Shown in pieces: positions 6,440 to 38,892 of a stretch of 64,000 nt of DNA (the first letter of the stretch is position 1; the number at the start of each line of letters is the position of its first letter). The stretch comes from a virus. The notes below the pieces were generated by a model. That model worked only from the letters and a program-made list of their open reading frames with translations, searched no databases and was not told the DNA's origin. The translations under genes were made by a program, and so were the position numbers. The DNA is taken from the IMG/VR virus record IMGVR_UViG_3300026557_000002, positions 33,154 to 97,153 of that record; one strand, written 5' to 3'.

Positions 6440-6447
6440 GAGGGGAT

Positions 6448-12367: not shown

Positions 12368-12559
12368 ATGGCAAAGGGAGCAGGAAGCGGTGATAAGCTG
12401 GCTCGAGGTGCGATTCGTGCAACATATACAACCACCGAAGGCGGCGTTTCGAACAAGAAGTGGGATGATATGTTCGCCGATTATGATCCGGAAAGATTCA
12501 AGAAAAACGGGCTGCCCAAAGTCGAGGGCGGCGAGAAAGAGTTGATGAAGAGCCGGTAA
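12368..12559 (+). CDS. Small hypothetical protein
   Basis: AAAGGAG RBS; stop overlaps next start (TAATG). Confidence 0.7.
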   Translation: MAKGAGSGDKLARGAIRATYTTTEGGVSNKKWDDMFADYDPERFKKNGLPKVEGGEKELMKSR

Positions 12560-17945: not shown

Positions 17946-17947
17946 AT

Positions 17948-22807: not shown

Positions 22808-22985
22808 GATAATTCTTCATGGCCTGTACAGATGGTTCTGGTAACGGGATATACGGACGGTTATACTCGTTGATCCAACTAACGATGTGCGCGGAGTGCT
22901 CCAACGCCTCGATATAATGCTCCGTGCATTTCCGTACCCCGCGGATTTCATAGCGGGCTGTTTGGGCACAATCTGCGCAGATCAT
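22785..22985 (-). CDS. Small Zn-finger-like protein
   Basis: CADC...CTEH; ATGA overlap. Confidence 0.55.
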   Translation of the reverse strand: MICADCAQTARYEIRGVRKCTEHYIEALEHSAHIVSWINEYNRPYIPLPEPSVQAMKNYLDNPPNN

Positions 22986-23981: not shown

Positions 23982-24506
23982 TCACTTTTTATCTAGTACT
24001 TTTTCGCACCAAAGGCATACGGGGAAGGGCTCGGTCAGCATGTACTCTTCATAAACAAAAGTCTGGCAGACATAGCATTTGAGGTCAGGCGGGATTGATT
24101 TTGGATACGGAGAAACATACGGGGGTTCTGGCGGCAAATCTTTCGGCCCAATCCAGCAATGCTCTCCGCAATCATGATCTGGAGCATCCGGAGTTTTATC
24201 TGGAGTCTTCTTCGCCTCCGCCTGAGCCTTCTTCATCAACTTCTTGACTTCGTCGTTCTTGGCCTTAATATCGGCTAGCCGCTGGTAGACTAGATAAGCT
24301 GCGTCCGTTATAGTCAGGCCCGATGCGGGTTTGTTTTTGCGGATTCGTTCGAGTGCCGGGAGTCCGGGAGGAGGCGCGTACCAGGTCCAGTCAGGCGGGC
24401 CGGATGTCATGAACTTGGCGGCTTTACAGGCGTCGAGATCGCCCTGGAAGTCCTGGCTAAACTGAGCCACGAAGAGATGACTGACGGGATTGTAGTCAAT
24501 CAACAT
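23982..24506 (-). CDS. Hypothetical protein with C-terminal CxxC pair
   Basis: Likely start MLIDY overlapping the upstream stop. Confidence 0.55.
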   Translation of the reverse strand: MLIDYNPVSHLFVAQFSQDFQGDLDACKAAKFMTSGPPDWTWYAPPPGLPALERIRKNKPASGLTITDAAYLVYQRLADIKAKNDEVKKLMKKAQAEAKKTPDKTPDAPDHDCGEHCWIGPKDLPPEPPYVSPYPKSIPPDLKCYVCQTFVYEEYMLTEPFPVCLWCEKVLDKK

Positions 24507-25093
24507 CAGATCGGAGGTTCTCCGCCGTTGCTTTCGCCGGCGGCCGCGACCATCCACTTAATGTTGTGCTGCTTGATCCTGCCCGCTATGATATGCGGCC
24601 TCAAGGCGTCTCCGACCATCCGGTCCTCGAACTGATATCCCGAAACGTCAAAGTCCGCGACTATCTGCATCGCTTTCCTGGATAAAAAATATCCGAAGCC
24701 TGAACAGTGAACTGGCGGATAGTGGTCGCGAGGAAAACAAGAGCCTGCGTAATCGTACTTCGTGTAATCAAATGCTCGGAAGCGTTTCTCATCGGGGACG
24801 GTGTCGCAATCTATTTTAAACAGATATGAGTAATTATGTTCTAATGCCCAAAAGCAAATTGCTTGAACTTTTAAAGGTAGATCAAAATATTCGTCTGGCG
24901 TATCAAGACAAATCCTATCATTAAATGTGTGAACAACTTTGTGTGAGTAAGCCGCTTTCGTGCGGCTATGCGTGTAGCCTGTAAAAAATCGCGTATCCGC
25001 GACATCCGAAAAAGGCACCCACTTAATTCGGATACTATCGTGAAGACCTTGATCCCTGCGACAACTGGCGACGGCGATGAGGAGTTTTGTCAT
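24506..25093 (-). CDS. GT31-like galactosyltransferase
   Basis: DEYFDLPLKV, KIDCDT, SGFGYFLSR, EDRMVG. Confidence 0.8.
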   Translation of the reverse strand: MTKLLIAVASCRRDQGLHDSIRIKWVPFSDVADTRFFTGYTHSRTKAAYSHKVVHTFNDRICLDTPDEYFDLPLKVQAICFWALEHNYSYLFKIDCDTVPDEKRFRAFDYTKYDYAGSCFPRDHYPPVHCSGFGYFLSRKAMQIVADFDVSGYQFEDRMVGDALRPHIIAGRIKQHNIKWMVAAAGESNGGEPPI

Positions 25094-25361
25094 GCTTTTC
25101 GGTCAGGGAACTCGAAACCGCTATCATATCGAAAATTAGAAAATGTTGTTCCGAGAAATATGATGCCGCAACGCGAACATCATAAGTTTACCAGCATTTT
25201 CGGGAAGCCCTAGTTAATTTATTTCTCTCTTTTTCGTATAATTTTTGGCGCAGTCTATGAGCTACCGATCCAATTTGACAATTGTTTTCTCGGACTGCCA
25301 AAAGAAATTCTTTAGCCTCTTTTGCGTACCCGTTTATAGCTGCTATAAAATAAGCCCCAAG

Positions 25362-25550
25362 TCATCGGTGCACCATCTCTAAAATCTTGTAAAGCACAAT
25401 CGCGGACGCCAATCCGCTCAGGAGTGCGCAAGCCGTCCGGACTAGAGACATCGCGAACAAAATCTTTTCTCGCCGAGTCACGATTTCGGCTCTAAGGATA
25501 TCGTTTGAACCGCTTTTTTCTCGGCTTGTTTTCTCTTCGCTTGCCGCCAT
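25362..25550 (-). CDS. Small membrane protein (holin/antiholin candidate)
   Basis: Single hydrophobic segment; downstream of endolysin. Confidence 0.4.
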   Translation of the reverse strand: MAASEEKTSREKSGSNDILRAEIVTRREKILFAMSLVRTACALLSGLASAIVLYKILEMVHR

Positions 25551-25660
25551 TCGGCCCTCTCTTCAAAACGATGCTTGTTCATTGCCCATACAGACCACTC
25601 AAAGTACATGACGAAGAAACCCTGTATCGTAATCAAAACTAGCAGGATGGTATCTACCAT
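25478..25660 (-). CDS. Putative holin
   Basis: N-terminal TM with basic C-terminus, directly after endolysin. Confidence 0.5.
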   Translation of the reverse strand: MVDTILLVLITIQGFFVMYFEWSVWAMNKHRFEERAEWRQAKRKQAEKKAVQTISLEPKS

Positions 25661-25665
25661 AGGTC

Positions 25666-26133
25666 CTAAGAGTTGATGCGGTTAAGCCAGCCTTGAATAA
25701 AAATTCTCTCTTGTGGCTTAGCGGTTACTACATTGAAAGCATGGGTTGCCAAGTTGCCTTTGAAACTCTTGAGCAAAGTCATTTCCTCAGCCTGGTTGAC
25801 GGCCGTCAGCGTCCCAGATCCGAACATTCCGTCTTGCACAACACCCAAAGTAAGTTGGAGGATTGTGATTGCGGTTCCGACTCCAAAAAGCACCCCAAGA
25901 TCGAAAAGTTTTTCAGCTACTGCTTGGCTCTCGATTTGGGAATAGAGATTTTTCCAATATCCCTCTTTATAAATTTCGATGGCTTGGGCCTGAGTCAAGT
26001 TCTTAATATCTAGGTTCGGGTATTCTCTTTTGGAGATTCCGAAATTCGTTTCTCCTCCGGGGTCCGAAGACGAGTTTGTATATCCGCCTTCATGAACTAG
26101 AGTTTTGGATATCGCTATCGTGCTATCAGACAT
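25666..26133 (-). CDS. Endolysin, GH108 lysozyme with peptidoglycan-binding domain
   Basis: HEGGY, DPGGETNFGI, DGMFGSGT, F.QGWLNR; GAGGAG RBS before MSDSTI. Confidence 0.92.
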   Translation of the reverse strand: MSDSTIAISKTLVHEGGYTNSSSDPGGETNFGISKREYPNLDIKNLTQAQAIEIYKEGYWKNLYSQIESQAVAEKLFDLGVLFGVGTAITILQLTLGVVQDGMFGSGTLTAVNQAEEMTLLKSFKGNLATHAFNVVTAKPQERIFIQGWLNRINS

Positions 26134-26344
26134 TAGAAATCTCCTCACTAGTCCACCGACGCCATCTTTGTTTGCAAAACGGGCACATCCACTCGCTCGT
26201 GCCATCGTATTCGGCGGTCTCGATGCCAATCAAATGGCTGAAAAACTCGCCTGCGAACAAATGCTTGTCTTTTTCAGGGATCTCGCCAGCGACCCAACTC
26301 TTATGACACTTAGGGCACTCTCGAGCCTGACTTGAAAATTTCAT
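26126..26344 (-). CDS. Small Zn-ribbon protein
   Basis: CPKC...[12 protein letters not shown]. Confidence 0.6.
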
Positions 26345-27297
26345 CTCTTCTCTCCGTAAAATTCGGCGTTTACCATCAGATTCACTAGACCTCTAAATTT
26401 AGTCTTGGCTTCCCAGCCAAGATTTTTCTTGGCTTTCGATGGATCCCCTAAAAGAAGATCTACCTCGGCGGGTCGAAAGTTCCCTGAATCTATCACGACG
26501 TATTTAGTCCAGTCAAGTCCCAAATAATTGAACGCCTCGCACAAAAACTCTCGTACCGAATGCGTCTCTCCTGTCGCCAATACGTAGTCATCCGGTTTGG
26601 ACTGTTGTAGCATTCTCCACATTCCTTCCACGTACTCGGGAGCATAACCCCAGTCCCGTTGGGCATCAAGATTTCCTAAAGAGAGAGTTTTTTGTTCGCC
26701 TTTAAGAATCTGAACTGCGGCCTTAACGATTTTCTTAGTTACGAAATTCTCTCCTCGACGAAAACTTTCGTGATTCATCAAAATTCCATTACAGGCGAAT
26801 ATCCCGTATGTCTCTCGATAGTTCAAGACCGTTTGATGTCCGAAATGTTTTGCTATAGCGTAAGGGCTTTGTGGATTAAACGGGGTGTTCTCGTTTTGTG
26901 GCGTTTCTTTAACCTTGCCGAACAACTCGCTTGTTCCGGCTTGATAAAATTTGCATTCTGGGACAACTTTACGGACTATTTCCAACAGGCGAAGAACTCC
27001 TAATCCGTCAATGTTGGCCGCATACTCAGGAGTATGAAAGCTGACTCCGACGTGCGACATAGCCGCAAGGTTGTAGATTTCGTCGGGTTCAACTTCTTTT
27101 ATAACGTTGTGTAGGCTGCTTGTATCCGCTAGGTCCCCGTCATAAATCTTGATTCGGTCTAAGATATGACTAATTCGTCCGAGGTTGGCACTGCTTGAAC
27201 GACGAACCATGCCGTGAACCTCGTATCCTTTTTCTAGAAGAAGCTCAGATAAATACGATCCATCTTGGCCGCCGCAACCAGTCACGAGTGCTTTCAT
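26341..27297 (-). CDS. gmd: GDP-mannose 4,6-dehydratase
   Basis: [51 protein letters not shown]. Confidence 0.97.
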
Positions 27298-28514
27298 ACT
27301 ACCTCCAATTTAGGCAAAGGAAAAACCAATCTTTGGCCCGCGTACTTCGGATTCTCTACAAAGAACTTCCTGAAGTGCCAAGGCAATACGATCAAGTAAT
27401 CTGGCTTCATAGCAAGTGCCCTACTTTCAGGGATGATTGGTATCCCGCTTCCCGGCGTGTAAGATCCGAACTTATCTGGGTTCACCTCGCCTATATACGA
27501 GATATTCTTTTCTGTCAGGCCGCAGTACTGCAACAAAACGTTTCCTTTGGTGGAGGCACCGAGCGCAGCCACGCTACATCCTTGAGATCGAACTAATTTG
27601 ATAAACTCAAGCAAGTCCTGCTTTGACTGAGCCGCCTGCAACCCGAAGTCGAAATAAGGCCGGATTGTATCTAAGCCTAGTTCTCGCTCTTTGTCAAGGA
27701 CTTTCTGGACATCAGGTGACTCGGGTCCGGTCTTGGACATCGTGACCGAGATACTACCCCCGTTGACGTCGTTGAACTCGATGCATCGAATAATGAAGCC
27801 GACGCGGTCAGCCATGAACTTGATCTGTTTCAGGGCATAAAATTCTAGGTGTTCGTGACAGACTGTGTCGTAAGAATTTGTCTCTAACATGCTAGGCATG
27901 TAACTTTGCTCAAAGACCCAGATACCATCTTCGTGAAGGACTTCGTGTATTTCGGCCATGAAGCCTGTCGGATCTTCGAGATCATAAAACATAGAAAATG
28001 ATGTGACGACTTTTGCCTTTTTTGAAAAGCATCTTCGAAGCAACGAGGCAGAAAAGAACTCGCAAATTAGCATGGTGTACTTAGAATAACAATCTTCAAA
28101 CTTGACTCCAGCCGGATCAAATCCTATTAAAGTTAAATCTGAAGGATAAGCACGTAGAGTAGTGCCGTCATTGCTGCCGATATCCACGACAAGGTCGCCC
28201 GCGTCTAGTTTGATCTGGGACAAGATTCTTCTAACCTTGTCTTGAAGGTGCCGAACCATACTAGGATTCAAACCGGAACGGTATCCGTAATTCTCGCCGT
28301 ACATCTCACCTGAGTTGTAAGAGTGTGCTAGCTGGAGCAATCCGCACACATCCTGACCTTGGCATTTGACTAGACGCAGCGGACCTCGGGTTATCTTCCC
28401 ATCCTTGATCTTGGGGAAGACGCCTGTCAGCATTTGCTCGCCCAAATCCAAGACTTGGACAAGGTTAGCATTTCCGCATATCCGGCATCTGTCGATCTTC
28501 TTAAACTTTCCCAT
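27294..28514 (-). CDS. NDP-hexose C-methyltransferase (Zn-binding, SAM and C-terminal domains)
   Basis: [46 protein letters not shown]; alternative start 28538. Confidence 0.9.
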
Positions 28515-28734
28515 AAAGTTTGGAACTTCCTTGTCCATAAGACTTCTGACCTAGCTCTTCGTCGACGGCTTGGATCAAATCGTTTCTGTGCTGGTTCGCG
28601 GTATTCGTGACGCGAGTCGCGTCCGCTATCTGCTTGTCTGTAGCCTTCGGGTCTCGCTTCCTGTCTTCGGCCATCCAGATACGGATATTCGCAATCGTTA
28701 GGGCGTCTATTAAATTTCCGATACTGACTTTCAT
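28501..28734 (-). CDS. Small helical protein (DUF4254-like, glycan-cluster associated)
   Basis: IGNLIDALTIANIRIWMAED...NQHRNDLIQAVD. Confidence 0.55.
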   Translation of the reverse strand: MKVSIGNLIDALTIANIRIWMAEDRKRDPKATDKQIADATRVTNTANQHRNDLIQAVDEELGQKSYGQGSSKLYGKV

Positions 28735-29717
28735 AGTTTGTCCAACATGTTGACTAACCGATTCTTGTATTCTTGCCTGTGATTTAGGCTCGGCGGGAAG
28801 CGCTTTTCGTGTTCTGGTGGGTTACTTCTGGGCGGATCGGCAACAACGAGATCCATCGGGCCATTAGCGAGGCTATACGTACTCATGATAAAAGAACCAC
28901 AGTACTGCAATTTAGGCGTCGGCTTGTTACCCCAACAACTCGTCACGACCGAGATACCCGAAGAGATACCAATAAACAAATCGGAATAATTGTTCACGAG
29001 CGCAGTCTGCCGGACTGTAAATTGCGAGCAAGATACGACGCCTAGGTCATCATAAAACCTGGAATTATCACCGGCGCAACAAAAAATAAAATTAGTCGGG
29101 CCAAAGCGATTCCGGCAGATTGTCATGGTCTCGCGAGTCAACTCGTCGTCCCATTGAGACTTGCCAGAGGTGAAATCTGTCTCTAGCATGACGGTTTTGG
29201 GATGAGGTAGAGTAGAACAGAAATCCCTGACAGCCTCGCGTTCAGAGTCCAAAAAGCCTAGATACGGATGCCACTCCCAACTAGGATCGGCGCCGAATAC
29301 CTTTCGAGAGATATTAGGATAATCGATACCGTGCCTCTGAGCCAAGGACATCATCCACGGCGTCGGGAAATAACCTAATTCAAGGTCTTTCGTCATCTCA
29401 AATTGGTGCTTGAAATCCTGTCTGAGATGGTTGTTAGCGTCCATTAAAACGCTAAGATCCGCCCAAGGAAGGTCTCTGGATTCTCCTCGGGCTATCCTGG
29501 CGTTCTCCAAAACACAACGCTCCGGTAGTTTCCAACCCTCTGGCCAAGGCCTGATTTCAGCGATGGCATCGTTGTGCTTCAAGACTTCGGTATACCTTGA
29601 GCAAAACCAGATGACGTCCTTGTTGGGCCAAAGCCGGTCTTTGTACTTCAGGACGCTCATCGCGCTAGCGATGTCGCCATTCAATCCAGGAAGAAAAATC
29701 CCTACTTTGCCTCTCAT
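28731..29717 (-). CDS. GT9-like GT-B glycosyltransferase
   Basis: N-terminal GLNGDI; C-terminal LVNNYSDLFIGISSG. Confidence 0.6.
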   Translation of the reverse strand: MRGKVGIFLPGLNGDIASAMSVLKYKDRLWPNKDVIWFCSRYTEVLKHNDAIAEIRPWPEGWKLPERCVLENARIARGESRDLPWADLSVLMDANNHLRQDFKHQFEMTKDLELGYFPTPWMMSLAQRHGIDYPNISRKVFGADPSWEWHPYLGFLDSEREAVRDFCSTLPHPKTVMLETDFTSGKSQWDDELTRETMTICRNRFGPTNFIFCCAGDNSRFYDDLGVVSCSQFTVRQTALVNNYSDLFIGISSGISVVTSCWGNKPTPKLQYCGSFIMSTYSLANGPMDLVVADPPRSNPPEHEKRFPPSLNHRQEYKNRLVNMLDKL

Positions 29718-30250
29718 CGTATCCACCAATCCTCGAATGGCTTACTGCCGACTTCTACATCATTTATTACACAAGACGGAGAAGGCACGTCAGAAACCGC
29801 AAGTTTGTAGCCTTGTGAAAGCATGAACTCCCGGATGGCATTCCGATGCTCTAGCTTGATGCCCATGCTGTCGTGTTCGATCGTGGCACAACGAAATGAA
29901 ACGCCAGCCGCGACCAAATTACGGAGCACATCTAGCTCTTCGCCGTACAAATCCAAGGACAGGTAACCGATTTCAAGTGACAAACCACGCGATGTTAGCG
30001 CTTGGCGCCAATCGATGTTTAAAGCATTTGCACATATAGCCGGACATTTTCGGTACTGATTCCAAGAAGATATAAACAAGTCTTCAAAATCAACCGCTAG
30101 GCCTTCCCAGCCGGCGAGTTCCAAGATAAAGGTGTTATTGTCGCTGAAGGGTTCCATGCACCCGATATCCAAGAATGTCTGGTTTCCGCCTGAGTTCTCG
30201 AGCGCGAACAAATCTTGACCAACTTGACTCCACGACTTTTTAGCGGCCAT
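29714..30250 (-). CDS. FkbM-like methyltransferase
   Basis: SQVGQD, FLDIGC, NNTF.LE..GWEG, YLSLD, TIEHD. Confidence 0.8.
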   Translation of the reverse strand: MAAKKSWSQVGQDLFALENSGGNQTFLDIGCMEPFSDNNTFILELAGWEGLAVDFEDLFISSWNQYRKCPAICANALNIDWRQALTSRGLSLEIGYLSLDLYGEELDVLRNLVAAGVSFRCATIEHDSMGIKLEHRNAIREFMLSQGYKLAVSDVPSPSCVINDVEVGSKPFEDWWIR

Positions 30251-30878
30251 ACTGCTCCAGCTTTGCTATCACATCTTCCGGATAGCACGATTGACTTTTA
30301 ACTTTTTCAATAGTCGCAGGATTGAAATATCCTAGGTCGAGATACCAATCCTCGAATGGAGAATCCACAATATCAGGATGGCGAACAAAGATGTCCGCAC
30401 ACGCCAGAACGTATCCTTGGCTTAAAAAGAGTTCTCTTTGAGGCGCTCTGTACGTATCGCCATATTGATAGGCGTCATGCTCGATACCAATGACCCTAAA
30501 CCGATAGTTGGCGTTAAGCACGAGCTTGGCAACATCCAAGTCCAGAACATCCACGTCGAGAGATAGGAAGTCTATAGAATAAGGCATATGCGCTTTCGCG
30601 AACTCTTTGTTGTAATCGATTTTTGTCGCATCTTGGTTGAGATAAGTACAATGCTTCCTATCCGCATAGCTGTCGTTATATCGGCTTTCTAATTCGACAC
30701 AGATGCCTCTCCAGTCCAATTTCGAATCTAAGTAATGCGAGTTATTATGAAACTTAGAATCCGCCGATCCGATGTCAACGTACGTGCCGACTACTTTAAA
30801 ATGAAACAAACGGGCACAGAACTCGTCGAGCCTAGAGCCGCTATGGCAGTTGGGATAATTCGTGAAAGATCGCTTCAT
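30240..30878 (-). CDS. FkbM-like methyltransferase (paralogue)
   Basis: YVDIGS, NNSHYL...WRGICVE, IDFLSLDVD, IEHD, PFEDW. Confidence 0.8.
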   Translation of the reverse strand: MKRSFTNYPNCHSGSRLDEFCARLFHFKVVGTYVDIGSADSKFHNNSHYLDSKLDWRGICVELESRYNDSYADRKHCTYLNQDATKIDYNKEFAKAHMPYSIDFLSLDVDVLDLDVAKLVLNANYRFRVIGIEHDAYQYGDTYRAPQRELFLSQGYVLACADIFVRHPDIVDSPFEDWYLDLGYFNPATIEKVKSQSCYPEDVIAKLEQYGR

Positions 30879-31654: not shown

Positions 31655-32649
31655 GAAAGAAATCCGTTGTCATATAATAGACAAGTTAAAGCATCTTTAT
31701 CCATTATTACGTCATTTGAACTAAATTCTTTTTGCAGATCTGTTCTGGTTTCAAATTGTCCTAATACGGACGAGATCACGTAATACCTGCCTCCGTCGAC
31801 TGTTCGAGAAATTTCTTCTTCACTAACGAGGATCTCGTGAATTTTCTCGCCTGGACGAACGCCGTCTATCCTGATTTCTATATCTCGTTCTCCGATCAAA
31901 CAATGCACCACATCCATCACTCGTGCTGACGGTATCTTGGGAACCCAGGTCTCGCCAGAATTCCCGAACTGGACGGTTGCAAATACGGTATCAACCGCAT
32001 GATCTAATGAAAGAAGAAAACGAGTCATATCTCTGGTTGTTACCGTGACGGGGCCCCCTCTCTTAATTTGTTCTTTAAAAAGCGGGATTACAGAACCGCG
32101 GGAAGCTAAAACGTTGCCATATCTGACACAGACAAACTTTGTCTGGGGGCAGCGCTCACCAGCGCTCAGAAAAATACGCTCTTGAATAGCTTTCGTCATG
32201 CCCATCACGTTCACGGGCGCACAAGCTTTGTCAGTGGATATCCCAACGACCGTCTCGACAACAAGGGCTTGTTCACTGATAGCGCGTACGATATTCTCGG
32301 CGCCGTTTATATTAGTCTTGACGGCCTCGTAAGGAAAATATTCGCAGGACGGGACCTGCTTCGAAGCTGCGGCATTAAATACGATATCCGCTTCTTGTAA
32401 AACACTAGCCACTGACGCATAATCCCGAATGTCCCCAATACGAAAACGAACCCGTCGCCTGAATTCCTCTCTTAGCTCGGGATCCATAGAATACTTAGCC
32501 ATCATGGCTGACTGCTTGGCCTCGTCGCGAGAAAAGACCGTAATCTTGTCTACGGTGCCGCCTTCTCCTGATAACAGCCGGCGAAGCAGCACGCTTCCCA
32601 AAGAGCCGGTTCCACCTGTTATCAAGATGCGCTTATTTTGAAAAAACAT
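31651..32649 (-). CDS. UDP-GlcNAc 4,6-dehydratase (FnlA/WbjB/PseB family)
   Basis: TGGTGSLG, FSRDEAKQ, KQVPSCE, STDKA, MGMTK, RYGNVLASRGSVIP, RPGEKIHE. Confidence 0.93.
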   Translation of the reverse strand: MFFQNKRILITGGTGSLGSVLLRRLLSGEGGTVDKITVFSRDEAKQSAMMAKYSMDPELREEFRRRVRFRIGDIRDYASVASVLQEADIVFNAAASKQVPSCEYFPYEAVKTNINGAENIVRAISEQALVVETVVGISTDKACAPVNVMGMTKAIQERIFLSAGERCPQTKFVCVRYGNVLASRGSVIPLFKEQIKRGGPVTVTTRDMTRFLLSLDHAVDTVFATVQFGNSGETWVPKIPSARVMDVVHCLIGERDIEIRIDGVRPGEKIHEILVSEEEISRTVDGGRYYVISSVLGQFETRTDLQKEFSSNDVIMDKDALTCLLYDNGFLS

Positions 32650-33451
32650 AGCCGTCTCCCTCGTCGTCTGTCTTCTTTTGCCAGTACAATAGCTCTTCCA
32701 AACCTAGCGGAGCCAATGTCGTAGCCGCCCTGAACTTAACCGCCAACAAGCTTCGGTCGCATTTCTCAGCCTCTACAGGCAAGATATTTACATCACTTTT
32801 TCCGTATGTCTTCTGGAACAATTTTAAAAGATCAAACTTTGAGATACGTTGAGAAGCCACATGGTAAAGGCCCGAGAGCCTGCTCTCTCGCTTCAAAAGG
32901 TCCCCAACAACGTCCGCAAGCCAGTTCGTGGTGACACCCGTAAAGAACGCGTTCTTGTATCCCTGAACATCTCCCGTTTGGCGCAAGAACCATTCCAGGA
33001 GTCCTTTGTAGTTATTTCGCTCTCGACCGACGATAGATGTCCTAATCGTCAACGTGTTTGGCACCTGCGTAACTTCGCCAGCCAGCTTTGTCTTGCCGTA
33101 AAGGTCTACTGGATCCGGAGTATGAGTTTCCATATAGCGCCCGAGATTGCCGGAGAATACACAGTCTGAACTGAAGTGAACTAAGTATGGGCACATGGCC
33201 TGAAGGTCATGTGGCAACTTAGCGTTGACGGCCTCAAGCAGCCTGGGGTCTTGCTCGCGTTGTTTGATGACGCCGACGCAATTCAAGACCGCATCCGGCT
33301 TAAAAAACTTGATGACCTTTTCCACGCTTGAGGAGTCCGTAGCGTCGAACGACGGCCTGGAGACGCCGATAACGGTCTCGAACTTCGGGCGCAGTCTCTC
33401 GACCATCTTGTGCCCGAGCATGCCGGTTGAGCCTAGGACGAGGACTCTCAT
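32633..33451 (-). CDS. RmlD-like NDP-4-keto-6-deoxysugar reductase
   Basis: GSTGMLG, SSDCVFSG, YGKTK, RTSIVG. Confidence 0.9.
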   Translation of the reverse strand: MRVLVLGSTGMLGHKMVERLRPKFETVIGVSRPSFDATDSSSVEKVIKFFKPDAVLNCVGVIKQREQDPRLLEAVNAKLPHDLQAMCPYLVHFSSDCVFSGNLGRYMETHTPDPVDLYGKTKLAGEVTQVPNTLTIRTSIVGRERNNYKGLLEWFLRQTGDVQGYKNAFFTGVTTNWLADVVGDLLKRESRLSGLYHVASQRISKFDLLKLFQKTYGKSDVNILPVEAEKCDRSLLAVKFRAATTLAPLGLEELLYWQKKTDDEGDGYVFSK

Positions 33452-34401
33452 CTAGACTCCTGGGTGATTCGGACGGCTTCCAAAAGACCGTTCAATTTTG
33501 TAACATACGTGTGATTTTGGGCAACTTCGTCCATCAACTTATGCAGGGTATCAATCTTGATTTTAGGGAGGGCTTCCTTGGCGTCGTAGAAAAGCTGACG
33601 TGTTTCCTCGTTGAAAATCAAATCAGGGAAAATCTTCTTGGACGCTATGTTGTTCGTAATTGGGAAGCAACCGTAACTAATATTTTTTGCAGTCCTGCAC
33701 GGAAAATAATGGACGTTATCTCGGTTGTGGTAGGTGTCCCCAATCGCGGGTGCCATATAGGACGCCTTGACGAGCCATTGATTCTCCTCAACAGAGACTG
33801 CGGTTCCGCCGCTGTACCCGCCGTAAGCGTTGAAGTTAATCCCGTTCTCAAGACAGGCTTTCTTGAAAGGGTTGTGAACATTGCCGTAGATGGTGCCGAC
33901 GAAATTGACATCCCGGCTCTCTTGGTTGAATACCTGGGCGGTCGGCTTGTTGGCCTCAATCTCGTGCGGCAGAAGATCCGTGCCCCAATACAGCACGGTA
34001 GACGAATACTTTTCGTGTCTCTGCAGAGATAGATATATATCGTGCCCGACCTTGATATCGTTGTCTACGTTAGTCGTCAGAGTATAGACGCCGTAATTCA
34101 TGAAATCGTAAGAACCGATATCACCGAAGAGCTCCTTGACTTTTTCGTCAGTATTATGGCAGACATAGAACGTGTCCTTGCGCTTCGGCATCAGTCTCAA
34201 GTCGGCCACGTTGACGGTCAAGAACAGCGAATTACTAAAATCGATATTGTCTAAGTTATCTTGGCCGTCAAGCCACAGGACCTCGCGGTCAGGGAACTTG
34301 AACTTGAGCGCGCGGTACCAGGCTTCCTGAATATGTTTGAACGTGTTGTAGCTCGATTTGAAGCCCCAGATAACGAACTTGTTTGTCTTTAAATCTATCA
34401 T
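33448..34401 (-). CDS. Putative GT-B glycosyltransferase
   Basis: WGTDLLPHEI, FVGTI, PCRTAKNISYG, HTY; cluster context. Confidence 0.55.
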   Translation of the reverse strand: MIDLKTNKFVIWGFKSSYNTFKHIQEAWYRALKFKFPDREVLWLDGQDNLDNIDFSNSLFLTVNVADLRLMPKRKDTFYVCHNTDEKVKELFGDIGSYDFMNYGVYTLTTNVDNDIKVGHDIYLSLQRHEKYSSTVLYWGTDLLPHEIEANKPTAQVFNQESRDVNFVGTIYGNVHNPFKKACLENGINFNAYGGYSGGTAVSVEENQWLVKASYMAPAIGDTYHNRDNVHYFPCRTAKNISYGCFPITNNIASKKIFPDLIFNEETRQLFYDAKEALPKIKIDTLHKLMDEVAQNHTYVTKLNGLLEAVRITQESR

Positions 34402-35174
34402 AGTCGTACCCACCTCTCAGGGCAAATGTCCCGAGCGTCTTCCGTACATGTCGGGCCGAACCAATTCTTCGGTGCGATCACAGTTCCGTAAGGATGTTTA
34501 AAATAGGCTGCCCACCAGCTGAACGAAGAATTTGCCGTAATTACATGATCGCAGAGGGACATCGCGTAAATATCCGTCGCTTCGGTACCGGGTTCTACAA
34601 CGACATCCCGACCCAAAGAAAAATCCGTGTAAAAAGTCTCGGAGACCCACTTAGGATTATCAGTGAAAAAGAAGAACTTTGGATGACTGATGCAGTCACG
34701 GATATATTGTCTGGCGGGACCATAATATCCGTAATCAAGATTCCCGTGAAAACTCTTATGCGGCTCTTGAATATAGTCCCCACGTCGAACATGAATCGCG
34801 ACCGCGTTCTCTTCGGCCAAAATCTGGCTCTCTAAATCTTTGCGGCGATTAAGAGGATTCAAATTTCTTAGTTCTTCTCGGACGTTTTCAAAATATTTCT
34901 CAGATTGCCAGTAGCCTTGTAAGACGTCTCCATCTCGAATGTTATCCACTAGCTTCTGGTTGTACGGCAAGCCGACTTCGCGAACGGTAGGCACCATTCT
35001 AGGCGACAATCTAAAGGCGTCTATATCCCACTGGCCTAGGGAGAACGGACGATTAACCGCCAACCGAGTGGCGTCGAATTGTACCTCGACACCGAGCCGC
35101 TTCGCCTGTGCCCGCCCAAAGGCGTACTGAAACATTTGATTGCCTATGCCGCCTTGCAAAATCACAGTGATCAT
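34398..35174 (-). CDS. GT11 alpha-1,2-fucosyltransferase
   Basis: GGIGNQMFQYA, GYWQSEKYF, HVRRGDY, NSSFSWWAAY. Confidence 0.95.
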   Translation of the reverse strand: MITVILQGGIGNQMFQYAFGRAQAKRLGVEVQFDATRLAVNRPFSLGQWDIDAFRLSPRMVPTVREVGLPYNQKLVDNIRDGDVLQGYWQSEKYFENVREELRNLNPLNRRKDLESQILAEENAVAIHVRRGDYIQEPHKSFHGNLDYGYYGPARQYIRDCISHPKFFFFTDNPKWVSETFYTDFSLGRDVVVEPGTEATDIYAMSLCDHVITANSSFSWWAAYFKHPYGTVIAPKNWFGPTCTEDARDICPERWVRL

Positions 35175-35833
35175 CGCGCCGTCCATGTAAGTTCAGGATG
35201 TAAAGACTTCATGACTTCAATCATCTTGCCTCGGTTCATAGTCGAGACCATGGATGTCTGCTTCCTGCGGTAAAAGAACAAAGCGTCGTTCAGGACCTGG
35301 ACTCGCCAGCCGCGTTTCAAGATTGAGACCCAGAGCTCCCAATCTTCGCAGCCTTCCGCCATCACGGATTTGTATCCGCCAGCCTCCAAGATCGCTTGCT
35401 TCCGAATCAGAGAGCACACCGGCATTCCGTTATATGCTGTAATCTGATGAAGCCCTGTATGCGTCGGGCGAAGGCGATTTGTATGCGTACCGAAGTATGT
35501 CATATCGGTCGAGACCACGCCGATCCCAGGACCCATTAGTGGCACAGTCTTCTCAAGGTAATGCGGATCGATTTTGTCATCTGCGTCTAAAGGCAGGATT
35601 AATTCGCCCGTCGAGAACTCTATTCCAGAGTTGCGCGCTGCCGCCAACCCGCCATTCACCTTATTGACGATCTTGACAGAAAATTTCTCAATCTCGCCCA
35701 GAGATCCGTCCGTTGAGCCGTCATTGACAACGATAACCTCAAGGTCTTTATACGTTTGCGCTAAAGCAGAACTGATCGCTTCCGCGACGTATTCGCGCAT
35801 ATTAAAGCACGGAATCACGATGCTGACTCTCAC
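35171..35833 (-). CDS. GT2 glycosyltransferase
   Basis: VSIVIPCFN, VNDGSTD, ARNSG, LDADD, EDWELW. Confidence 0.95.
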   Translation of the reverse strand: MRVSIVIPCFNMREYVAEAISSALAQTYKDLEVIVVNDGSTDGSLGEIEKFSVKIVNKVNGGLAAARNSGIEFSTGELILPLDADDKIDPHYLEKTVPLMGPGIGVVSTDMTYFGTHTNRLRPTHTGLHQITAYNGMPVCSLIRKQAILEAGGYKSVMAEGCEDWELWVSILKRGWRVQVLNDALFFYRRKQTSMVSTMNRGKMIEVMKSLHPELTWTAR

Positions 35834-36528
35834 CTTCCGTCCTTTTTAGTCAAGGCCAGAATCTTTGGAGTCGGATTGATGCCTGCGGCCTTCCACTTAT
35901 CTAGGTAGTGCAAGTTGGCCCCTTCTGGGTAACAATAGGATGGGTCCAAGATTTTGGCTGGCGGATGATCCAATAAATAGCGATTCAGATGAGACTCGTC
36001 ATGCCATACGGCTACGATGTAACGGTTGAGATCAAAACTAATATTTGACGCAAGTTCTTCTGACATCTTTAAAAAGGCTTTCGCGTTCCCGCCATTAAAG
36101 CCGCCGCAGAAATACTTATTATTTTTCGCCGGATTAATATAGGCACAAGATTCCACTCGCCTCTCTGGTGTGCCACTTTCGTTGATGTAACCAGGATGGA
36201 GTGTCCCGACCACACCGTCGGCAAAAACTTCCTCCCCTACTGGGGCCACGAATCTCATATCTACATCTGCATAAAAGACTTGATCATATTTCTCCAATAA
36301 TATCTTTTGTCCGAGGAAAGTATGATAGCGATAAAGCGTTTCGTTCGGATAGCCCAAGGCCCCTTTGGTTATGACGAATTTCGCGTCAAATTGACTGGCG
36401 GCTCGTAAGGTATCCGTCCAAACGACAGCGTCGTGCTCAACAAAAAATTCCTTAGCGGATTCCAGTAGCGGATTCACGTATTTGTGATATTTCTCACCCG
36501 TCGCTATCACTAAAAGAGCGGTTTTCAT
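35830..36528 (-). CDS. GT6 (ABO-type) alpha-1,3-Gal/GalNAc transferase
   Basis: IATGEKY, YADVDM, LHPGY, YFCGGFNGG, WHDESHLNRY. Confidence 0.95.
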   Translation of the reverse strand: MKTALLVIATGEKYHKYVNPLLESAKEFFVEHDAVVWTDTLRAASQFDAKFVITKGALGYPNETLYRYHTFLGQKILLEKYDQVFYADVDMRFVAPVGEEVFADGVVGTLHPGYINESGTPERRVESCAYINPAKNNKYFCGGFNGGNAKAFLKMSEELASNISFDLNRYIVAVWHDESHLNRYLLDHPPAKILDPSYCYPEGANLHYLDKWKAAGINPTPKILALTKKDGR

Positions 36529-37220
36529 CGGCTCTCCGCATACTTTCTTTTCATCCAATCATAACCGACCTTCTCGTCGTACCCTTGGCCATACCTACTT
36601 GAAGGGAAGTGGTCGGTAAATGGCTCAGGTGTCGAGTCCCCAATCATAATCTTGCCTTCGGCCGCAAGCGAGCCCATAACTTGGCCGACCCAAAGATCCT
36701 CTGCCCAGCTAGACGGATACGAAAATACGACTTCGTTCAGGGCTGCTCGGCTCAGGAAGTACCCGAAGCCTCCGCTGGCCCAGGGGTACGCACGCTGATG
36801 CATCTCCTTCTCGCCCTCGCGGTTGACGGCTTCGTACCTAAAGGTGCCTGAGGTCTTGCCGTTAAAGTGTCCGAAGTAATCGTAAGAGGTGAACGGCGAG
36901 GCAAGAAGCTTCTTGACGTTGACGAAGGTATCTGTATCACAAAGAAAAATGAAATTTACCATCTTGCCTTGGAACCACTTGCATATCTCGCGGGTCTTCT
37001 TCGGCAAGCTATTGTAATCATCGTCGCAGGCAACCCGAATCTCGTCTGACTCGAAATTGACGACTCGGGCCGAGTTTTGCTCTTGCTGGCCGACGAAGAA
37101 CTTCACCGGGATGCCGGCAGCCCTGGCGTCTTGGCCCCAGGTTGAGCGGATCAAGTTATGGTCGCCGCGGTCTTTGTGCTGGAGACAGGACTTGACAGCG
37201 ATAATCAGCCTGAGGTTCAC
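36525..37220 (-). CDS. GT31-like galactosyltransferase
   Basis: IRSTWG, DDYNSLPKKT, CDTDTFV, SGGFGYFLSR, EDLWVG. Confidence 0.85.
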   Translation of the reverse strand: MNLRLIIAVKSCLQHKDRGDHNLIRSTWGQDARAAGIPVKFFVGQQEQNSARVVNFESDEIRVACDDDYNSLPKKTREICKWFQGKMVNFIFLCDTDTFVNVKKLLASPFTSYDYFGHFNGKTSGTFRYEAVNREGEKEMHQRAYPWASGGFGYFLSRAALNEVVFSYPSSWAEDLWVGQVMGSLAAEGKIMIGDSTPEPFTDHFPSSRYGQGYDEKVGYDWMKRKYAESR

Positions 37221-38101
37221 TTGACACATCCTCCGGACAACCGCTCTTCTTCGGTCAAGATATTCCTGCCAAGGATGCGATCAAGAACTTGCCGGCCGTA
37301 CTCAAGACTTAGCTGGAAGCCGGAAGCATGAAGATGCCCGCCGCCGTTAAACACTTTCGCAATCGCCGAGACATCTACGTCGCCTTCGGAACGTAGGCTG
37401 AACTGGATCATGCCATCCGCTCTCTCAAACCAGGTCAGGCTGACATCATGCGTCTTCGCTAACTCGTTCCCGATCTCCGAACAATTCAGATACAGAGCGT
37501 TCACGACCGCCGTCTTGTATCCTTGGAAGAAGCCGACTTGGGCTTGCTTAACGGCTTCGCGGACGTAATGGTTAATATGGGCTAAGGCTCCTTCGCCTTT
37601 GTAAGCTGCGTCCTTGGCTTCCATATCATAAAGACCGTCCCATGCTTCGGCAGTTAATTCCTCCTTAGACCAACGCAGCTTCCAATTCCACAGATCCCGA
37701 TCTTCCACATATTCGACCATCCATGGCCTAGCGGGAGGGTAATGAGTATCATTAAGCCTTGGGGCATTTGTGTCACTCCCGAATAGGTGGTCCCACGTTA
37801 ATCCGGCACCAGAACGTTTCATATCAAAGATAGCGTATGATGCGCCTTCAAGGACAGCTTGTGCTGTTTTGTGGTGATCAAGTATCTTGAAAGATTTCGC
37901 CAGCGAATTCAATTTGTCATTTAGTTCGCGGGTCCTGAGACTGAAATCCAACATCAGGACATCTTTGCCTTTGACTTGGGAGAAATCAAATTCTGCCCCG
38001 TGATTGAGCGGGACTAGTTTGGCCTCGGGGTATCTCTTGCTTGCGATAAAGGCGGCACACCAGCCGTCTGGGCATGCGCCGTGGTAGTAAACGATATCCA
38101 T
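37217..38101 (-). CDS. DHH/DHHA1 phosphoesterase
   Basis: H..CPDG, LDF, LDHHKT, DRDLW, FSLRS, GGGHLHASG. Confidence 0.92.
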   Translation of the reverse strand: MDIVYYHGACPDGWCAAFIASKRYPEAKLVPLNHGAEFDFSQVKGKDVLMLDFSLRTRELNDKLNSLAKSFKILDHHKTAQAVLEGASYAIFDMKRSGAGLTWDHLFGSDTNAPRLNDTHYPPARPWMVEYVEDRDLWNWKLRWSKEELTAEAWDGLYDMEAKDAAYKGEGALAHINHYVREAVKQAQVGFFQGYKTAVVNALYLNCSEIGNELAKTHDVSLTWFERADGMIQFSLRSEGDVDVSAIAKVFNGGGHLHASGFQLSLEYGRQVLDRILGRNILTEEERLSGGCVK

Positions 38102-38892
38102 TATTTCTTCTCCTGATAATCTACGATCCCATTCGCCATGATGTACGTCTTGATCCCGCGCTTGACAAAACATGGGCGCTCTGGGAAGAGCGCGCGGTTA
38201 CGGAACTTTTTATACTCCGCGCTATCCGTTCCTTGCTGCTGATTTATGTTTGCTCCCGGGACGAAGCCGACTTTGAAGCCAGCACGGCGCATATCAACAA
38301 ACCAAGCACCATGTTCTCCCCCACCGATTTTTACATCGTCGTCCCAACGAAGTTCTTTAAAAGTCTCGCGACGGAACAGCGTATAGTTCACTGTCAGGTC
38401 TACATCGAAGACCTCAAGGAATGAACTCTCTTTGACACGTTCGTCAATCTTGGCATCATGTTCTGCTATGATGCCTTTATTCTCTGACAAGAACGTCTCG
38501 TAAGGTCGATTGTCTACTCGCCCCGAGACAGCATAATACCTAGGGTGCTTTTCAAGAATTGCCAGCATCTTCTCGATTCCCACGCGAACGCTCGGATCAG
38601 CGAAATCGAAATCATCACTAGCCACAAGAAGGTACGGCGTATCCAAGGCGTCGATGATCGCATTACTCATGGCTCCAAATCCGGCGTCGAAATTTAATTT
38701 CAAAAATTTCCAATCATTGTAGGCTACATAACCTGCGAAATTGATATTTTTTGTAAAAGTTTCATGACCGCAATCGGCTACAATAACCTTAACATCCGAT
38801 CCCCAACTCACTATGTCGCCGAGAGTCTTCAGTAACTTTTCGTCGCGGAGAAACGTCTTGATTCCGATGCTGATTTTAGATAGATCTAACAT
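38101..38892 (-). CDS. GT2-like glycosyltransferase
   Basis: IKTFLRD, IVADCG, FDAGFG, SDDFDF, GGGEH. Confidence 0.8.
   Translation of the reverse strand: MLDLSKISIGIKTFLRDEKLLKTLGDIVSWGSDVKVIVADCGHETFTKNINFAGYVAYNDWKFLKLNFDAGFGAMSNAIIDALDTPYLLVASDDFDFADPSVRVGIEKMLAILEKHPRYYAVSGRVDNRPYETFLSENKGIIAEHDAKIDERVKESSFLEVFDVDLTVNYTLFRRETFKELRWDDDVKIGGGEHGAWFVDMRRAGFKVGFVPGANINQQQGTDSAEYKKFRNRALFPERPCFVKRGIKTYIMANGIVDYQEKK

Follow-up and report, generated by a model that had tools for sequence, protein, structure and literature searches.

A 97-kb tailed phage, uncultured and with a portal of the SU10 type, was recovered from a soil-type metagenome and probably infects a host in Acidobacteriota; it carries a long-resident, modular glycan-assembly island. 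Our leading, tentative reading is that its soluble enzymes work in the host cytoplasm on host nucleotide-sugar pools, with phage proteins as the acceptor. The island occupies positions 24506-38892 on the minus strand of the window, i.e., the whole 64,000-nucleotide stretch of DNA analysed here. Similar islands are already known from cyanophages and giant viruses.

The initial annotation described about 14 kb of co-oriented, often overlapping genes, and we found an unbroken chain of overlapping minus-strand ORFs whose ends coincide exactly with the span (Table 1). The sole apparent gap is filled by the DUF4254 ORF, which overlaps both neighbours. Together with the upstream replication genes (UvrD downward), the island constitutes one overlapping ORF chain in the replication/lysis arm, opposite the virion genes. 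The late expression proposed earlier stays conjectural. In addition, the span includes items omitted from that annotation, namely the DHH phosphoesterase, the endolysin, small membrane ORFs and the DUF4254 ORF, which are not glycan genes, and the Zn-ribbon ORF. The DHH phosphoesterase, which is missing from two related loci (L010 and L011), interrupts the island and is probably not a glycan enzyme.

Table 1. Features of the glycan island and of nearby genes (window positions).
Feature	Position	Strand	Evidence or remark
Claimed tenth GT	12559..13329	+	End of virion/ejection gene block; conserved family, invariant E94-E95-D96
Tyrosine recombinase	16033-16914		Integrase-like gene
Signal-peptide protein, HpiC1/CBM-like domain	22982-23857		Downstream of island; own promoter-like site
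Second GT31, DCD motif	24506..25093	-	PF01762 9.5e-9; downstream of lysis genes
Lysis cassette	25362..26229	-	Endolysin and two small TM ORFs
Small hydrophobic TM ORFs	25478-25660, 25362-25550	-	Beside endolysin
GH108 + PG_binding_3 endolysin	25666-26229	-	PF05838 1.1e-20; PF09374 6.2e-9
Zn-ribbon ORF	26126-26344		Within island span
GDP-mannose 4,6-dehydratase (Gmd)	26341..27297	-	TIGR01472 6.8e-133, 443 bits (cut-off 415); PF16363 1e-128
NDP-hexose C-methyltransferase	27294..28538	-	PF08484 3.2e-43; PF08421 2.8e-14; PF13489 7.7e-11 (Methyltransf_13/23/14)
DUF4254 ORF, 77 aa	28501..28734	-	PF14063 8.6e-11, 38 bits (cut-off 27)
Conserved uncharacterised protein, candidate GT9-like	28731..29729	-	Language-model features only (Atlas, 5/30 neighbours GT9); lead only
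Candidate FkbM-like methyltransferase, paralog 1	29714..30250	-	Atlas, 7/30 nearest clusters FkbM, score 0.97; lead only
Candidate FkbM-like methyltransferase, paralog 2	30240..30878	-	30% identical to paralog 1; lead only
GT-A-fold GT, uncharacterised family	30875..31654	-	AlphaFold2 pLDDT 91.1; Foldseek
PseB/FnlA-like UDP-GlcNAc 4,6-dehydratase (Polysacc_synt_2)	31651..32649	-	PF02719 2.7e-88; TIGR03589 1.9e-88; TIGR04130 1.8e-75 (both TIGR scores below equivalog cut-offs)
RmlD-like NDP-4-keto-6-deoxyhexose reductase	32633..33451	-	PF04321 3.8e-32; TIGR01214 1.1e-29 (below cut-off)
GT-B-fold GT, uncharacterised family	33448..34413	-	AlphaFold2 pLDDT 90.9; Foldseek
GT11, alpha-1,2-fucosyltransferase type	34398..35186	-	PF01531 1.6e-27; HVRRGD motif
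GT2, DAD motif	35171..35833	-	PF00535 7.7e-31
GT6, alpha-1,3-Gal/GalNAc-transferase type	35830..36558	-	PF03414 7.6e-30; metal-binding DVD98-100, WHDESHLN
First GT31 (beta-1,3-Gal/GlcNAc-transferase type, Fringe-like), DTD motif	36525..37229	-	PF01762 1e-10; PF02434 2.6e-6
DHH/DHHA1 phosphoesterase	37217..38173	-	phrog_4771 1.1e-63; PF02272 1.2e-6; DHH and GGGH motifs
GT-A candidate, first glycan gene of chain	38101..38892	-	TIGR04440 6e-10, 39 bits (cut-off 70); SDDFDF motif

Five related metagenomic phages show synteny for the island, which lies between the same replication and lysis genes: one relative (L009) shares the whole island at 34-86% amino acid identity, four from other metagenomes (L010-L013) carry it at the same position, and the sugar-pathway cassette is swapped among them. 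A recently captured or misassembled O-antigen/EPS locus of the host, a prospect raised at the outset, might be considered, since bacterial O-antigen clusters are similar in gene content and the record is a metagenomic contig. It is contradicted by the synteny in five independent assemblies, the GC content (island 47.8% vs. 49.7%), the codon usage (r = 0.88 with the phage replication genes), the overlaps of island ORFs with flanking phage genes, the lack of Wzx, Wzy or a PGT and the viral DxD type of the GT6, and we regard such an artefact as extremely improbable.

Eight of the nine glycosyltransferases (GTs) originally claimed were supported: the two GT31 enzymes, GT11, GT2 and GT6 by HMM, the GT-A and GT-B proteins by fold, and the first gene of the chain weakly. 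The family profile of the first GT31 matches human B3GALT5 (9e-9) as well as B3GNT2 and C1GalT1. The GT-B protein had no match in Pfam, NCBIfam or PHROG; in Foldseek its model retrieved SenB (8rz3, E 8e-6, TM 0.53) and also FUT9 and EXT1/2, and its 17 viral homologs often adjoin Gmd. The GT-A model retrieved SpsA (1h7q, 1.3e-6) together with GTA/GTB, BoGT6a and LARGE1, and the family alignment contains a DxD-type LDSDxF motif with invariant D123 and F125. Predicted folds confirm the two as members of new GT-B and GT-A families. The first gene of the chain, conserved beside the GT31/GT6 core in L009-L013 and L016, is by its sequence a probable GT-A enzyme. The ninth, GT9-like candidate had no HMM match: its homologs, at least 175 in number, all lack a Pfam domain, and GT9 (PF01075) was found neither in the protein nor in 36 homologs, a PDB profile search or six frames. 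Similarly, the tenth GT proposed beside the virion genes lacked HMM or profile support. Its 129 homologs are all without annotation, Pfam and profiles gave no match, hhalign against the GT-A family and a PDB profile search were negative or weak, and only the invariant EED and a GT-A-like N-terminus point to a GT.

All three short-chain (SDR) nucleotide-sugar enzymes claimed (Gmd, PseB/FnlA-like and RmlD-like) were confirmed by HMM, and the genes of the latter two overlap. Among the three methyltransferases claimed, the C-methyltransferase is proven by HMM; it comprises a Zn-binding N-domain, a SAM domain and a C-terminal domain, and its gene start overlaps the gmd stop. The two FkbM-like paralogs, which have the motifs DIG, LSLDxxxxxLDV and IEHD in common, are probable methyltransferases; neither matched PF05050 by HMM, and hhalign of paralog 1 against a Pfam-positive FkbM of the same genome was negative. 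The description of the island as self-contained was overstated, because neither a sugar-1-P nucleotidyltransferase nor a GDP-fucose synthase (Fcl/GMER) was found in the phage genome, which has three SDRs only. No Bac_transf or other initiating phosphoglycosyl transferase was found in the genome either, and further glycan genes are located beyond the window. Without Fcl, the GT11 donor is not covered.

This soluble, phage-resident enzyme set is able to assemble a branched and methylated oligosaccharide in the cytoplasm, as proposed initially, with deoxy sugars among its residues. First, Gmd makes GDP-4-keto-6-deoxymannose and, with the C-methyltransferase translationally coupled after it, may lead to a C-methyl-branched 6-deoxyhexose, comparable to the proposed virenose route. 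Second, the coupled PseB/FnlA-like dehydratase and RmlD-like reductase act on a UDP-HexNAc-type substrate, the expected product being a 2-acetamido-2,6-dideoxy-L-hexose of the RhaNAc type, a route with precedents in WbvB/WbvR and Megavirus Mg534/535. Third, judging from family knowledge, GT31 would add beta-1,3-linked Gal, GT11 alpha-1,2-Fuc and GT6 an alpha-1,3-Gal/GalNAc cap, giving an ABH-like branch, and the FkbM-like enzymes may O-methylate the glycan. If phage proteins are the acceptor, cassette swapping among relatives would give each phage its own glycan type.

No TM segment was predicted in any GT, methyltransferase or SDR ORF, in line with the initial annotation, and its claim that no exporter, Wzx, Wzy or Gtr is encoded also held: no ORF with more than two TM-like segments, and thus no polytopic membrane protein, occurs in the 97-kb genome, none of 1577 ORFs in 80 GT6 loci has six or more, and no flippase, polymerase, ligase or initiating transferase was found in the genome or these loci. 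The solubility of the GTs had been taken as a pointer to a protein acceptor; however, it cannot separate a protein from a lipid-linked acceptor, because O-antigen and LPS-core GTs are likewise soluble or peripheral and rely on host flippases. It is quite possible, if still doubtful, that the phage GTs remodel the host envelope by extending host Und-PP-glycan or lipid A-core at the inner leaflet, with export by host MsbA, Wzx or ABC transporters and a host ligase; the surface would then be changed in infection or (pseudo)lysogeny, blocking superinfection and keeping progeny from re-adsorbing to debris. Precedents are E. coli O86, where soluble GT11 and GT6 make a blood-group-B-like O unit, and prophage TarP, a soluble GT whose target is a cell-wall polymer. 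The tyrosine recombinase is consistent with this, cassette variation between relatives fits a receptor arms race, and the GT9-like ORF would suit LPS core, an assignment that failed all HMM tests. Host-surface modification is also the standing reading of the homologous cyanophage 'LPS' clusters, favoured by their authors (PMC7824862; PMC12801897), and the families seen here recur in the P-SSM2 cluster. Against it, with no initiating or export set in this genome or the 80 loci, the phage enzymes must fit the intermediates of each host. Furthermore, replication and lysis genes of the lytic cycle stand in one chain with the island, and no moron-like promoter or terminator frame was seen around it. 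GT6 homologs occur in 282 viral loci, and all of the 80 fetched are DxD, whereas bacterial GT6 is nearly all NxN (PMC3961637), so the machinery here was not just taken over from an O-antigen system. Of those 80 loci, 61 have a GT11 homolog. A GT6-GT11(-Gmd) core is recurrent among at least 80 viral loci; the GT6-GT11 pair also occurs in strictly lytic T4-like cyanophages, and lysogenic conversion is therefore not its general role.

By analogy, the glycan may be assembled straight onto phage proteins, such as those of the virion surface, fibres or decoration, and we favour this reading with reserve. PBCV-1 offers a capsid-glycan precedent with virus-encoded, soluble, cytoplasmic GTs (PMC5408694), Megavirinae carry clade-specific clusters of 6-33 genes, Rha2NAc included (PMC10117803), and virion glycosylation is described for mycobacteriophages Che8, Corndog and Myrna (PMC12363180). 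The cassette swap parallels the Megavirinae clades and may count for a protein acceptor. In this phage, a third GT31 (contig 5547-6176, 31% identical to the second GT31), an FkbM methyltransferase and a methyltransferase-like ORF lie outside the window (contig 4055-6176) on the virion-gene strand, adjoining a Ser/Thr-rich Ig-like (TIG) protein (27% S+T) whose start overlaps the stop of the third GT31. Virion proteins as likeliest acceptor, as first put forward, remain a plausible leading guess, but no acceptor is evident: no virion protein was recognised as mucin-like, collagen-like or strongly rich in Ser/Thr, nor was a C-terminal acceptor extension, and the cyanophage literature favours the host surface. 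The main island lies away from the virion genes, and Gmd, FnlA/RmlD, GT2, GT11, GT6 and possibly GT9 form a classic O-antigen/LPS set. The uncovered GT11 donor, three enzyme assignments that are leads only and a genome estimated as 92% complete also weigh against this explanation.

It is unlikely that the glycan goes to another soluble target, be it an oligosaccharide that stays free or is secreted, a glycosylated small molecule, or a protein of phage or host outside the virion. C-methylated and deoxy sugars typically occur in glycosylated natural products, the secreted HpiC1/CBM-like protein encoded directly downstream would be one candidate acceptor, and Iyer et al. described secondary-metabolite-like sugar clusters in cyanophages. 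However, no gene for making an aglycone, such as a PKS or NRPS, occurs in the genome, eight to nine GTs far exceed the needs of small-molecule decoration, and a Sec-exported protein is beyond the reach of cytoplasmic GTs once exported. Glycosylation of hydroxymethylated phage bases to evade restriction is very improbable. Phage GTs that hypermodify DNA with varied glycans are on record (Pyle et al. 2024, as cited in PMC12619734), and the GT-B model weakly matches T4 beta-glucosyltransferase and phage HY126 GT folds; but no thymidylate-synthase/dCMP-hydroxymethylase family gene was found in the genome, the encoded C5-cytosine, N6/N4 and MT-A70 methyltransferases imply ordinary bases, and GT31, GT11 and GT6 belong to families that extend glycans and use sugars as acceptors.

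The nearest known systems are cyanophage 'LPS' clusters (P-SSM2) and giant-virus glycosylation clusters. The 'LPS' or cell-wall-synthesis-and-modification clusters of T4-like cyanomyoviruses (P-SSM2, S-SCSM1, S-SCSM2R and ACG-2014f) are likewise contiguous and co-oriented, with Gmd and SDR enzymes, GT2, GT11, GT6 and further GTs and no exporters, and for both the function is putative. Their carriers are jumbo or near-jumbo myoviruses, in contrast to the smaller soil-type phage here, in which the island sits between replication and lysis genes, adds the C-methyltransferase, the FnlA/RmlD pair, two GT31 and two structure-only GT families, and lacks GT25, GT1 and Fcl-type epimerases. Giant viruses (PBCV-1, Megavirinae) share soluble GTs that lack a signal peptide and TM segments, viral Gmd, methylated sugars, a Rha2NAc-type pathway, a fixed genomic place and clusters differing between close relatives, although our GT31 profile search did not retrieve PBCV-1 A064R. 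Their hosts are eukaryotic and their virion target has been shown experimentally, whereas that of the present island is a proposed one. In the virion O-glycosylation of mycobacteriophages (Freeman et al. 2023, as cited in PMC12363180 and PMC12619734), soluble phage GTs modify the phage's own capsid and tail proteins, using two to three GTs and host sugar donors, compared with eight to nine GTs and three or four sugar-nucleotide enzymes here. Seroconverting GtrABC or O-antigen-modifying temperate phages also carry glycan-changing gene sets, and an integrase-like gene is present here; in contrast to the island enzymes, Gtr systems consist of membrane proteins and work in the periplasm. The logic of GT11, GT6, beta-1,3-GalT and Gmd leading to an ABH-like epitope is shared with E. 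coli O86 (GT11 WbnK, GT6 WbnI, beta-1,3-GalT, gmd/fcl) and with Bacteroides ovatus BoGT6a, which requires a Fuc-alpha-1,2-Gal acceptor (PMC3961637). Bacterial O86-type loci differ in having wzx, wzy, fcl and a GT6 nearly always of the metal-independent NxN type, and the beta-1,3-transferase is GT2 in E. coli O86 and GT31 in the phage island.

Profile searches bore out most of the glycan island described by the initial annotation, whose coordinates each coincide with an ORF boundary. HMM assignment confirmed two GT31 glycosyltransferases (GTs) as well as GT11, GT2 and GT6 enzymes, together with a PseB/FnlA-like UDP-HexNAc 4,6-dehydratase, an RmlD-like reductase, a sugar C-methyltransferase of three domains, and Gmd, which scored above the equivalog cut-off. 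Both GT6 (DVD98-100 and WHDESHLN) and GT11 (HVRRGD132) retain their catalytic motifs, DxD is present in GT2 and both GT31 enzymes, and a GT31 profile combining the paralogs with viral homologs matched human B3GALT5 (9e-9), B3GNT2 and C1GalT1. The earlier tally of nine GTs, three SDRs and three methyltransferases was essentially right, except that three of the assignments (the 28731-29729 ORF and two FkbM-like paralogs) are unproven, having no HMM support. Several items inside the span had been missed: a DHH phosphoesterase, an endolysin with two small membrane ORFs, and a DUF4254 ORF. The phosphoesterase, with possible roles in nucleotide turnover or anti-defence signalling, is kept at the same place in three of five related metagenomic phages (L009, L012 and L013) and is missing in the other two (L010 and L011). 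The DUF4254 ORF is shorter than the default ORF-list minimum, and its product may be a partner of the C-methyltransferase; the one apparent gap in the span, 192 nt long, is accounted for by this ORF and showed no RNA structure (z = +1.5). For the endolysin, the true start is probably an internal ATG at about residue 33, judging from the domain position.

Features of the studied phage and its relatives (window coordinates unless marked)
Feature	Location	Strand	Remarks
12559 ORF	12559-13329	+	last gene of the virion/ejection block
AAA protein	16974-18005		
DNA methyltransferases, three	19282-20517, 48331-49131, 57869-59062	-	different classes (C5, N6/N4, MT-A70)
HpiC1/CBM-like protein	22982-23857	-	just downstream of the island; clear signal peptide
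Promoter-like site	23972-23944		TTGACA-17-CATATT, upstream of the 22982-23857 gene
Endolysin	25666-26229	-	longest ORF opens with TTG; GH108 domain from residue 41
DUF4254 ORF, 77 aa	28501-28734	-	PF14063, 8.6e-11; overlaps the 28731 ORF and the C-methyltransferase gene
28731 ORF	28731-29729	-	
FkbM-like paralogs	29714-30250, 30240-30878	-	
GT-A family ORF	30875-31654	-	fold predicted
GT-B family ORF	33448-34413	-	fold predicted
DHH/DHHA1 phosphoesterase	37217-38173	-	DHH and GGGH motifs intact; between two GT genes
Nucleoside 2-deoxyribosyltransferase-like ORF	54076-54669		
Glycan mini-module	contig 4055-6823	+	outside the window, on the virion-gene strand; glycan genes span contig 4055-6176
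Sugar cassette of L010	L010:12211-16099	+	
Triple GT fusion of L012	L012:11469-13544	+	692 aa

Five island ORFs had no match in Pfam, NCBIfam, PHROGs or PDB sequence searches (single-sequence PDB searches gave noise only), and two of them were resolved by alignments of viral homologs and AlphaFold2. One is predicted to adopt a GT-B fold (pLDDT 90.9; matches to SenB, FUT9 and exostosin), and the other a GT-A fold (pLDDT 91.1; matches to SpsA, ABO transferases and BoGT6a), in which a DxD-type motif is invariant. Profile searches of the PDB gave nothing or noise with these two families, and likewise with the 28731 and 12559 families. The 28731 ORF belongs to a large unannotated family of at least 175 members; its GT9 likeness is seen in Atlas language-model features alone, and the Glyco_transf_9 profile found no match in the ORF, in 36 homologs (E <= 1) or in six frames (E <= 10). 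The FkbM-like paralogs carry FkbM-like motifs and were an Atlas lead; neither matched the Methyltransf_21 profile, and hhalign against the Pfam-positive FkbM of the genome was negative. It was likewise negative for the 28731 family against the GT-B family, the 12559 family against the GT-A family, and the single 12559 protein against the GT-A alignment. The 12559 ORF, once counted as a tenth GT, is unproven as one; no profile ties its family to any GT. The search gave this family at least 129 members, none of them annotated (40-82% identity; contigs among the hits reach ~115 kb), which share an invariant EED, 30 invariant columns overall and a GT-A-like N-terminal strand-helix.

The record is a linear sequence of 97,153 bp with 49% GC and no terminal overlap, estimated by CheckV to be 92% complete; the window covers its bases 33154-97153. 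It encodes the large terminase and SU10-type portal of a tailed phage. Large Pfam-negative virion/ejection proteins occupy the plus strand, and the minus-strand arm holds a primase-polymerase, UvrD helicase, PD-(D/E)XK nuclease, three DNA methyltransferases, the endolysin and a tyrosine recombinase. By terminase, the closest isolated phage is Tunturiibacter phage Tunturi_3 at a mere 24% identity, a 97.6-kb podovirus of Acidobacteriota (PMC11924767), and the portal has relatives in a MAG of Bryobacterales and on a contig of 99.9 kb from an archaeal bin. These matches point, if weakly, to a probably acidobacterial host. In the Bryobacterales MAG, the GT6, PD-(D/E)XK and 12559 queries retrieved no homolog. 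Megablast with the island as query found nothing among 50,697 phage records. The archaeal-bin contig, CABMCB010000059.1 (99,937 bp; bin "uncultured archaeon LFW-28"), is a phage of the same lineage, probably placed in the wrong bin: its portal is 65% identical, it has the head and ejection genes in common, and it carries GT31, GT6 and GT11 as a block.

Several lines of evidence show that the island is the phage's own. First, the synteny search recovered the whole island in L009, a 91-kb contig, at 34-86% amino acid identity; the other four relatives keep a GT-(DHH)-GT31-GT6-GT11-GT2 core with the same flanks, UvrD and PD-(D/E)XK at one end and the endolysin at the other. Second, island GC (47.8%) resembles that of the phage, as does its codon usage (r = 0.88 against the replication genes), and an unbroken chain of overlapping ORFs runs from UvrD down to gmd. 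Third, a GT6 query returned 282 viral loci, and all 80 fetched sequences, a sample biased to relatives of the DxD-bearing query, have DxD at the metal-binding position, whereas bacterial GT6 enzymes are almost all NxN (PMC3961637). Given this difference, the viral GT6 clade looks metal-dependent like the vertebrate enzymes, and the uniform viral DxD is relevant to how the blood-group transferase family arose. On the basis of synteny, codon usage and GC, ORF overlaps and the DxD-type GT6 we reject a captured or misassembled host locus, the refuting case set by the initial annotation.

Hydrophobic segments are absent from every GT, methyltransferase and SDR ORF, as first reported; the maximum 19-residue hydropathy is below 1.4 throughout, and the enzymes are soluble, with neither signal peptide nor transmembrane (TM) segment. 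Across the whole 97-kb genome no ORF of at least 60 aa has more than two TM-like segments, in agreement with the reported absence of Wzx, Wzy, an ABC exporter and GtrAB; the AAA protein matches ABC_tran below threshold only, and a membrane GtrA flippase/GtrB/GtrC set finds no counterpart among the ORFs of the genome. Polytopic membrane proteins were also absent from 1,577 ORFs across the GT6 loci (1.4 Mb). Six-frame searches of the genome found no Bac_transf initiating transferase (PF02397), with no polytopic WecA-like candidate, and no sugar-1-phosphate nucleotidyltransferase of the ManC/RmlA/GlmU type (PF00483). The only SDRs in the genome are the three of the island, none of them Fcl-like (NF047922 0.004, N-terminal only), so the GDP-L-fucose pathway is incomplete, with Gmd present and Fcl/GMER absent. 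Because the membrane and six-frame family searches exposed these gaps, the claim of no exporter was right and that of a self-contained island was wrong: host GDP-mannose, UDP-GlcNAc and UDP-Gal/GalNAc are needed, and host GDP-fucose synthase too if fucose is used. A Wzx/Wzy- or ABC-dependent O-antigen/EPS locus is contradicted by the same results, as its initiating transferase, its flippase, polymerase or exporter, and its nucleotidyltransferase are all missing.

Starting from the demonstrated enzyme families, their coupling and their motifs, an assembly route can be proposed from family knowledge. Gmd would supply GDP-4-keto-6-deoxymannose, to which the overlapping C-methyltransferase, as in the pathway proposed for virenose, would add a 3-C-methyl branch. 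The pair of FnlA-like and RmlD-like enzymes would make UDP-2-acetamido-2,6-dideoxy-L-hexose, the sugar yielded by the WbvB/WbvR route. Megavirus Mg534/535 make the same compound. GT31 would form Gal-beta-1,3-R, GT11 Fuc-alpha-1,2-Gal and GT6 an alpha-1,3-Gal/GalNAc cap, and FkbM-like enzymes would methylate hydroxyls of the glycan. The tight GT11-GT6 linkage fits this order, since GT6 enzymes such as BoGT6a need a fucosylated acceptor (PMC3961637). Of an ABH-type set, GT6 (DVD, WHDESHLN) and GT11 (HVRRGD) are in place and a complete GDP-Fuc supply is missing.

The acceptor of this glycan may be the virion or other phage proteins, a reading that we rate a little short of even. All enzymes are soluble, the lipid-pathway entry enzyme is absent throughout, PBCV-1, Megavirinae and mycobacteriophages provide precedents, and the core also occurs in strictly lytic cyanomyoviruses. 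In addition, a second glycan module adjoins an Ig-like protein on the virion strand: it runs from an FkbM methyltransferase (PF05050, 9e-8) through a 173-aa methyltransferase-like ORF and a third GT31 to an IPT/TIG Ig-like protein, whose gene overlaps that GT31. Homologs of the 173-aa ORF adjoin GT6 in eight viral GT6 loci (L014, L019-L021, L029-L032). As a candidate acceptor we name the TIG protein, encoded at contig 6173-6823; a screen for S/T-rich or collagen-like acceptors gave nothing striking, the best, at 27% Ser+Thr, being this protein and a structural protein of 688 aa encoded at contig 27695-29761. The main island itself lies in the replication arm, and the virion-gene strand has only the GT31/FkbM module and the unproven 12559 ORF. 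Remodelling of the host envelope is rated only slightly lower: O-antigen and LPS synthesis classically uses these enzyme families, with GTs that are soluble as well, the remaining steps could pass through host MsbA, Wzx and ligase, and published opinion on homologous cyanophage clusters favours it. Scanning 21-41 kb for promoters and terminators revealed no clear frame enclosing the island, terminators being no more frequent than chance predicts, and no expression signal separating the virion and host-envelope readings. Just downstream of the island, the HpiC1/CBM-like gene may be expressed separately from the operon and give a secreted or surface protein. Other soluble targets are improbable. 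Glycosylation of DNA through hmC or hmU is very improbable: a C5 DNA methyltransferase is present and no dCMP/dUMP hydroxymethylase was found, the six-frame search for the thymidylate-synthase family (PF00303) being negative in this genome and positive in control genomes.

The closest known system is the "LPS" cluster of P-SSM2 (Gmd, epimerases, two GT2, GT1, GT11, GT6 and GT25), of which the S-SCSM2R cluster, with 13 GTs, is a relative. Like clusters of this type, the island is contiguous and co-oriented, has GT2, GT11 and GT6 with its own Gmd and two further SDRs, and is phage-resident between phage genes (UvrD/PD-(D/E)XK and endolysin) with no export genes. It differs in carrier lineage, in its position from replication genes through lysis genes, in the C-methyl sugar route, in having GT31 in place of a GT2-type beta-1,3-transferase, and in two GT families known from predicted structure only. 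Virus-encoded soluble GTs are shared with the virion glycosylation systems of mycobacteriophages, chloroviruses and Megavirinae; the Megavirinae clusters are the closest functional analogue with experimental testing. Whether such islands decorate virions or host surfaces has been a question since the P-SSM2 genome. If virions are the target, soil phage particles would wear strain-specific glycan coats affecting adsorption, stability and phage-phage competition, and the island would be a bacteriophage counterpart of the clade-specific fibril glycosylation of Megavirinae, beyond actinophages and with its own nucleotide-sugar pathways. Multi-GT islands are emerging as common in environmental phages, as the 282 viral loci from the GT6 query alone indicate. 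For heterologous expression, this compact 97-kb phage provides such an island in small, tightly coupled form: its GT31-GT11-GT6 set is intact, it has two rare-sugar routes, and two of its GT families, both uncharacterised, are predicted to fold with high confidence.

The sugar-pathway part of the island is swapped among relatives. In L010 a cassette replaces the C-methyltransferase, FkbM-like and FnlA set with a split TPP-dependent E1-like pair (E1_dh and Transket_pyr), an SDR, an RmlC-type 3,5-epimerase and a DegT aminotransferase, a composition that suggests a two-carbon-branched or amino deoxysugar. We tentatively propose that virion proteins bear a self-made, O-methylated glycan with a C-methyl-branched deoxysugar and an ABH-blood-group-like Fuc-alpha-1,2-Gal(alpha-1,3-Gal/GalNAc) branch, and that trading of sugar cassettes would give each phage its own "glycotype". 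Outside the studied phage family, GT11 accompanies GT6 in 56 of 75 loci and Gmd in 39 of 75, contigs of 150-317 kb among them. In L012, three GT domains are fused in the order GT6, Gly_transf_sug (GT32-like) and GT2.
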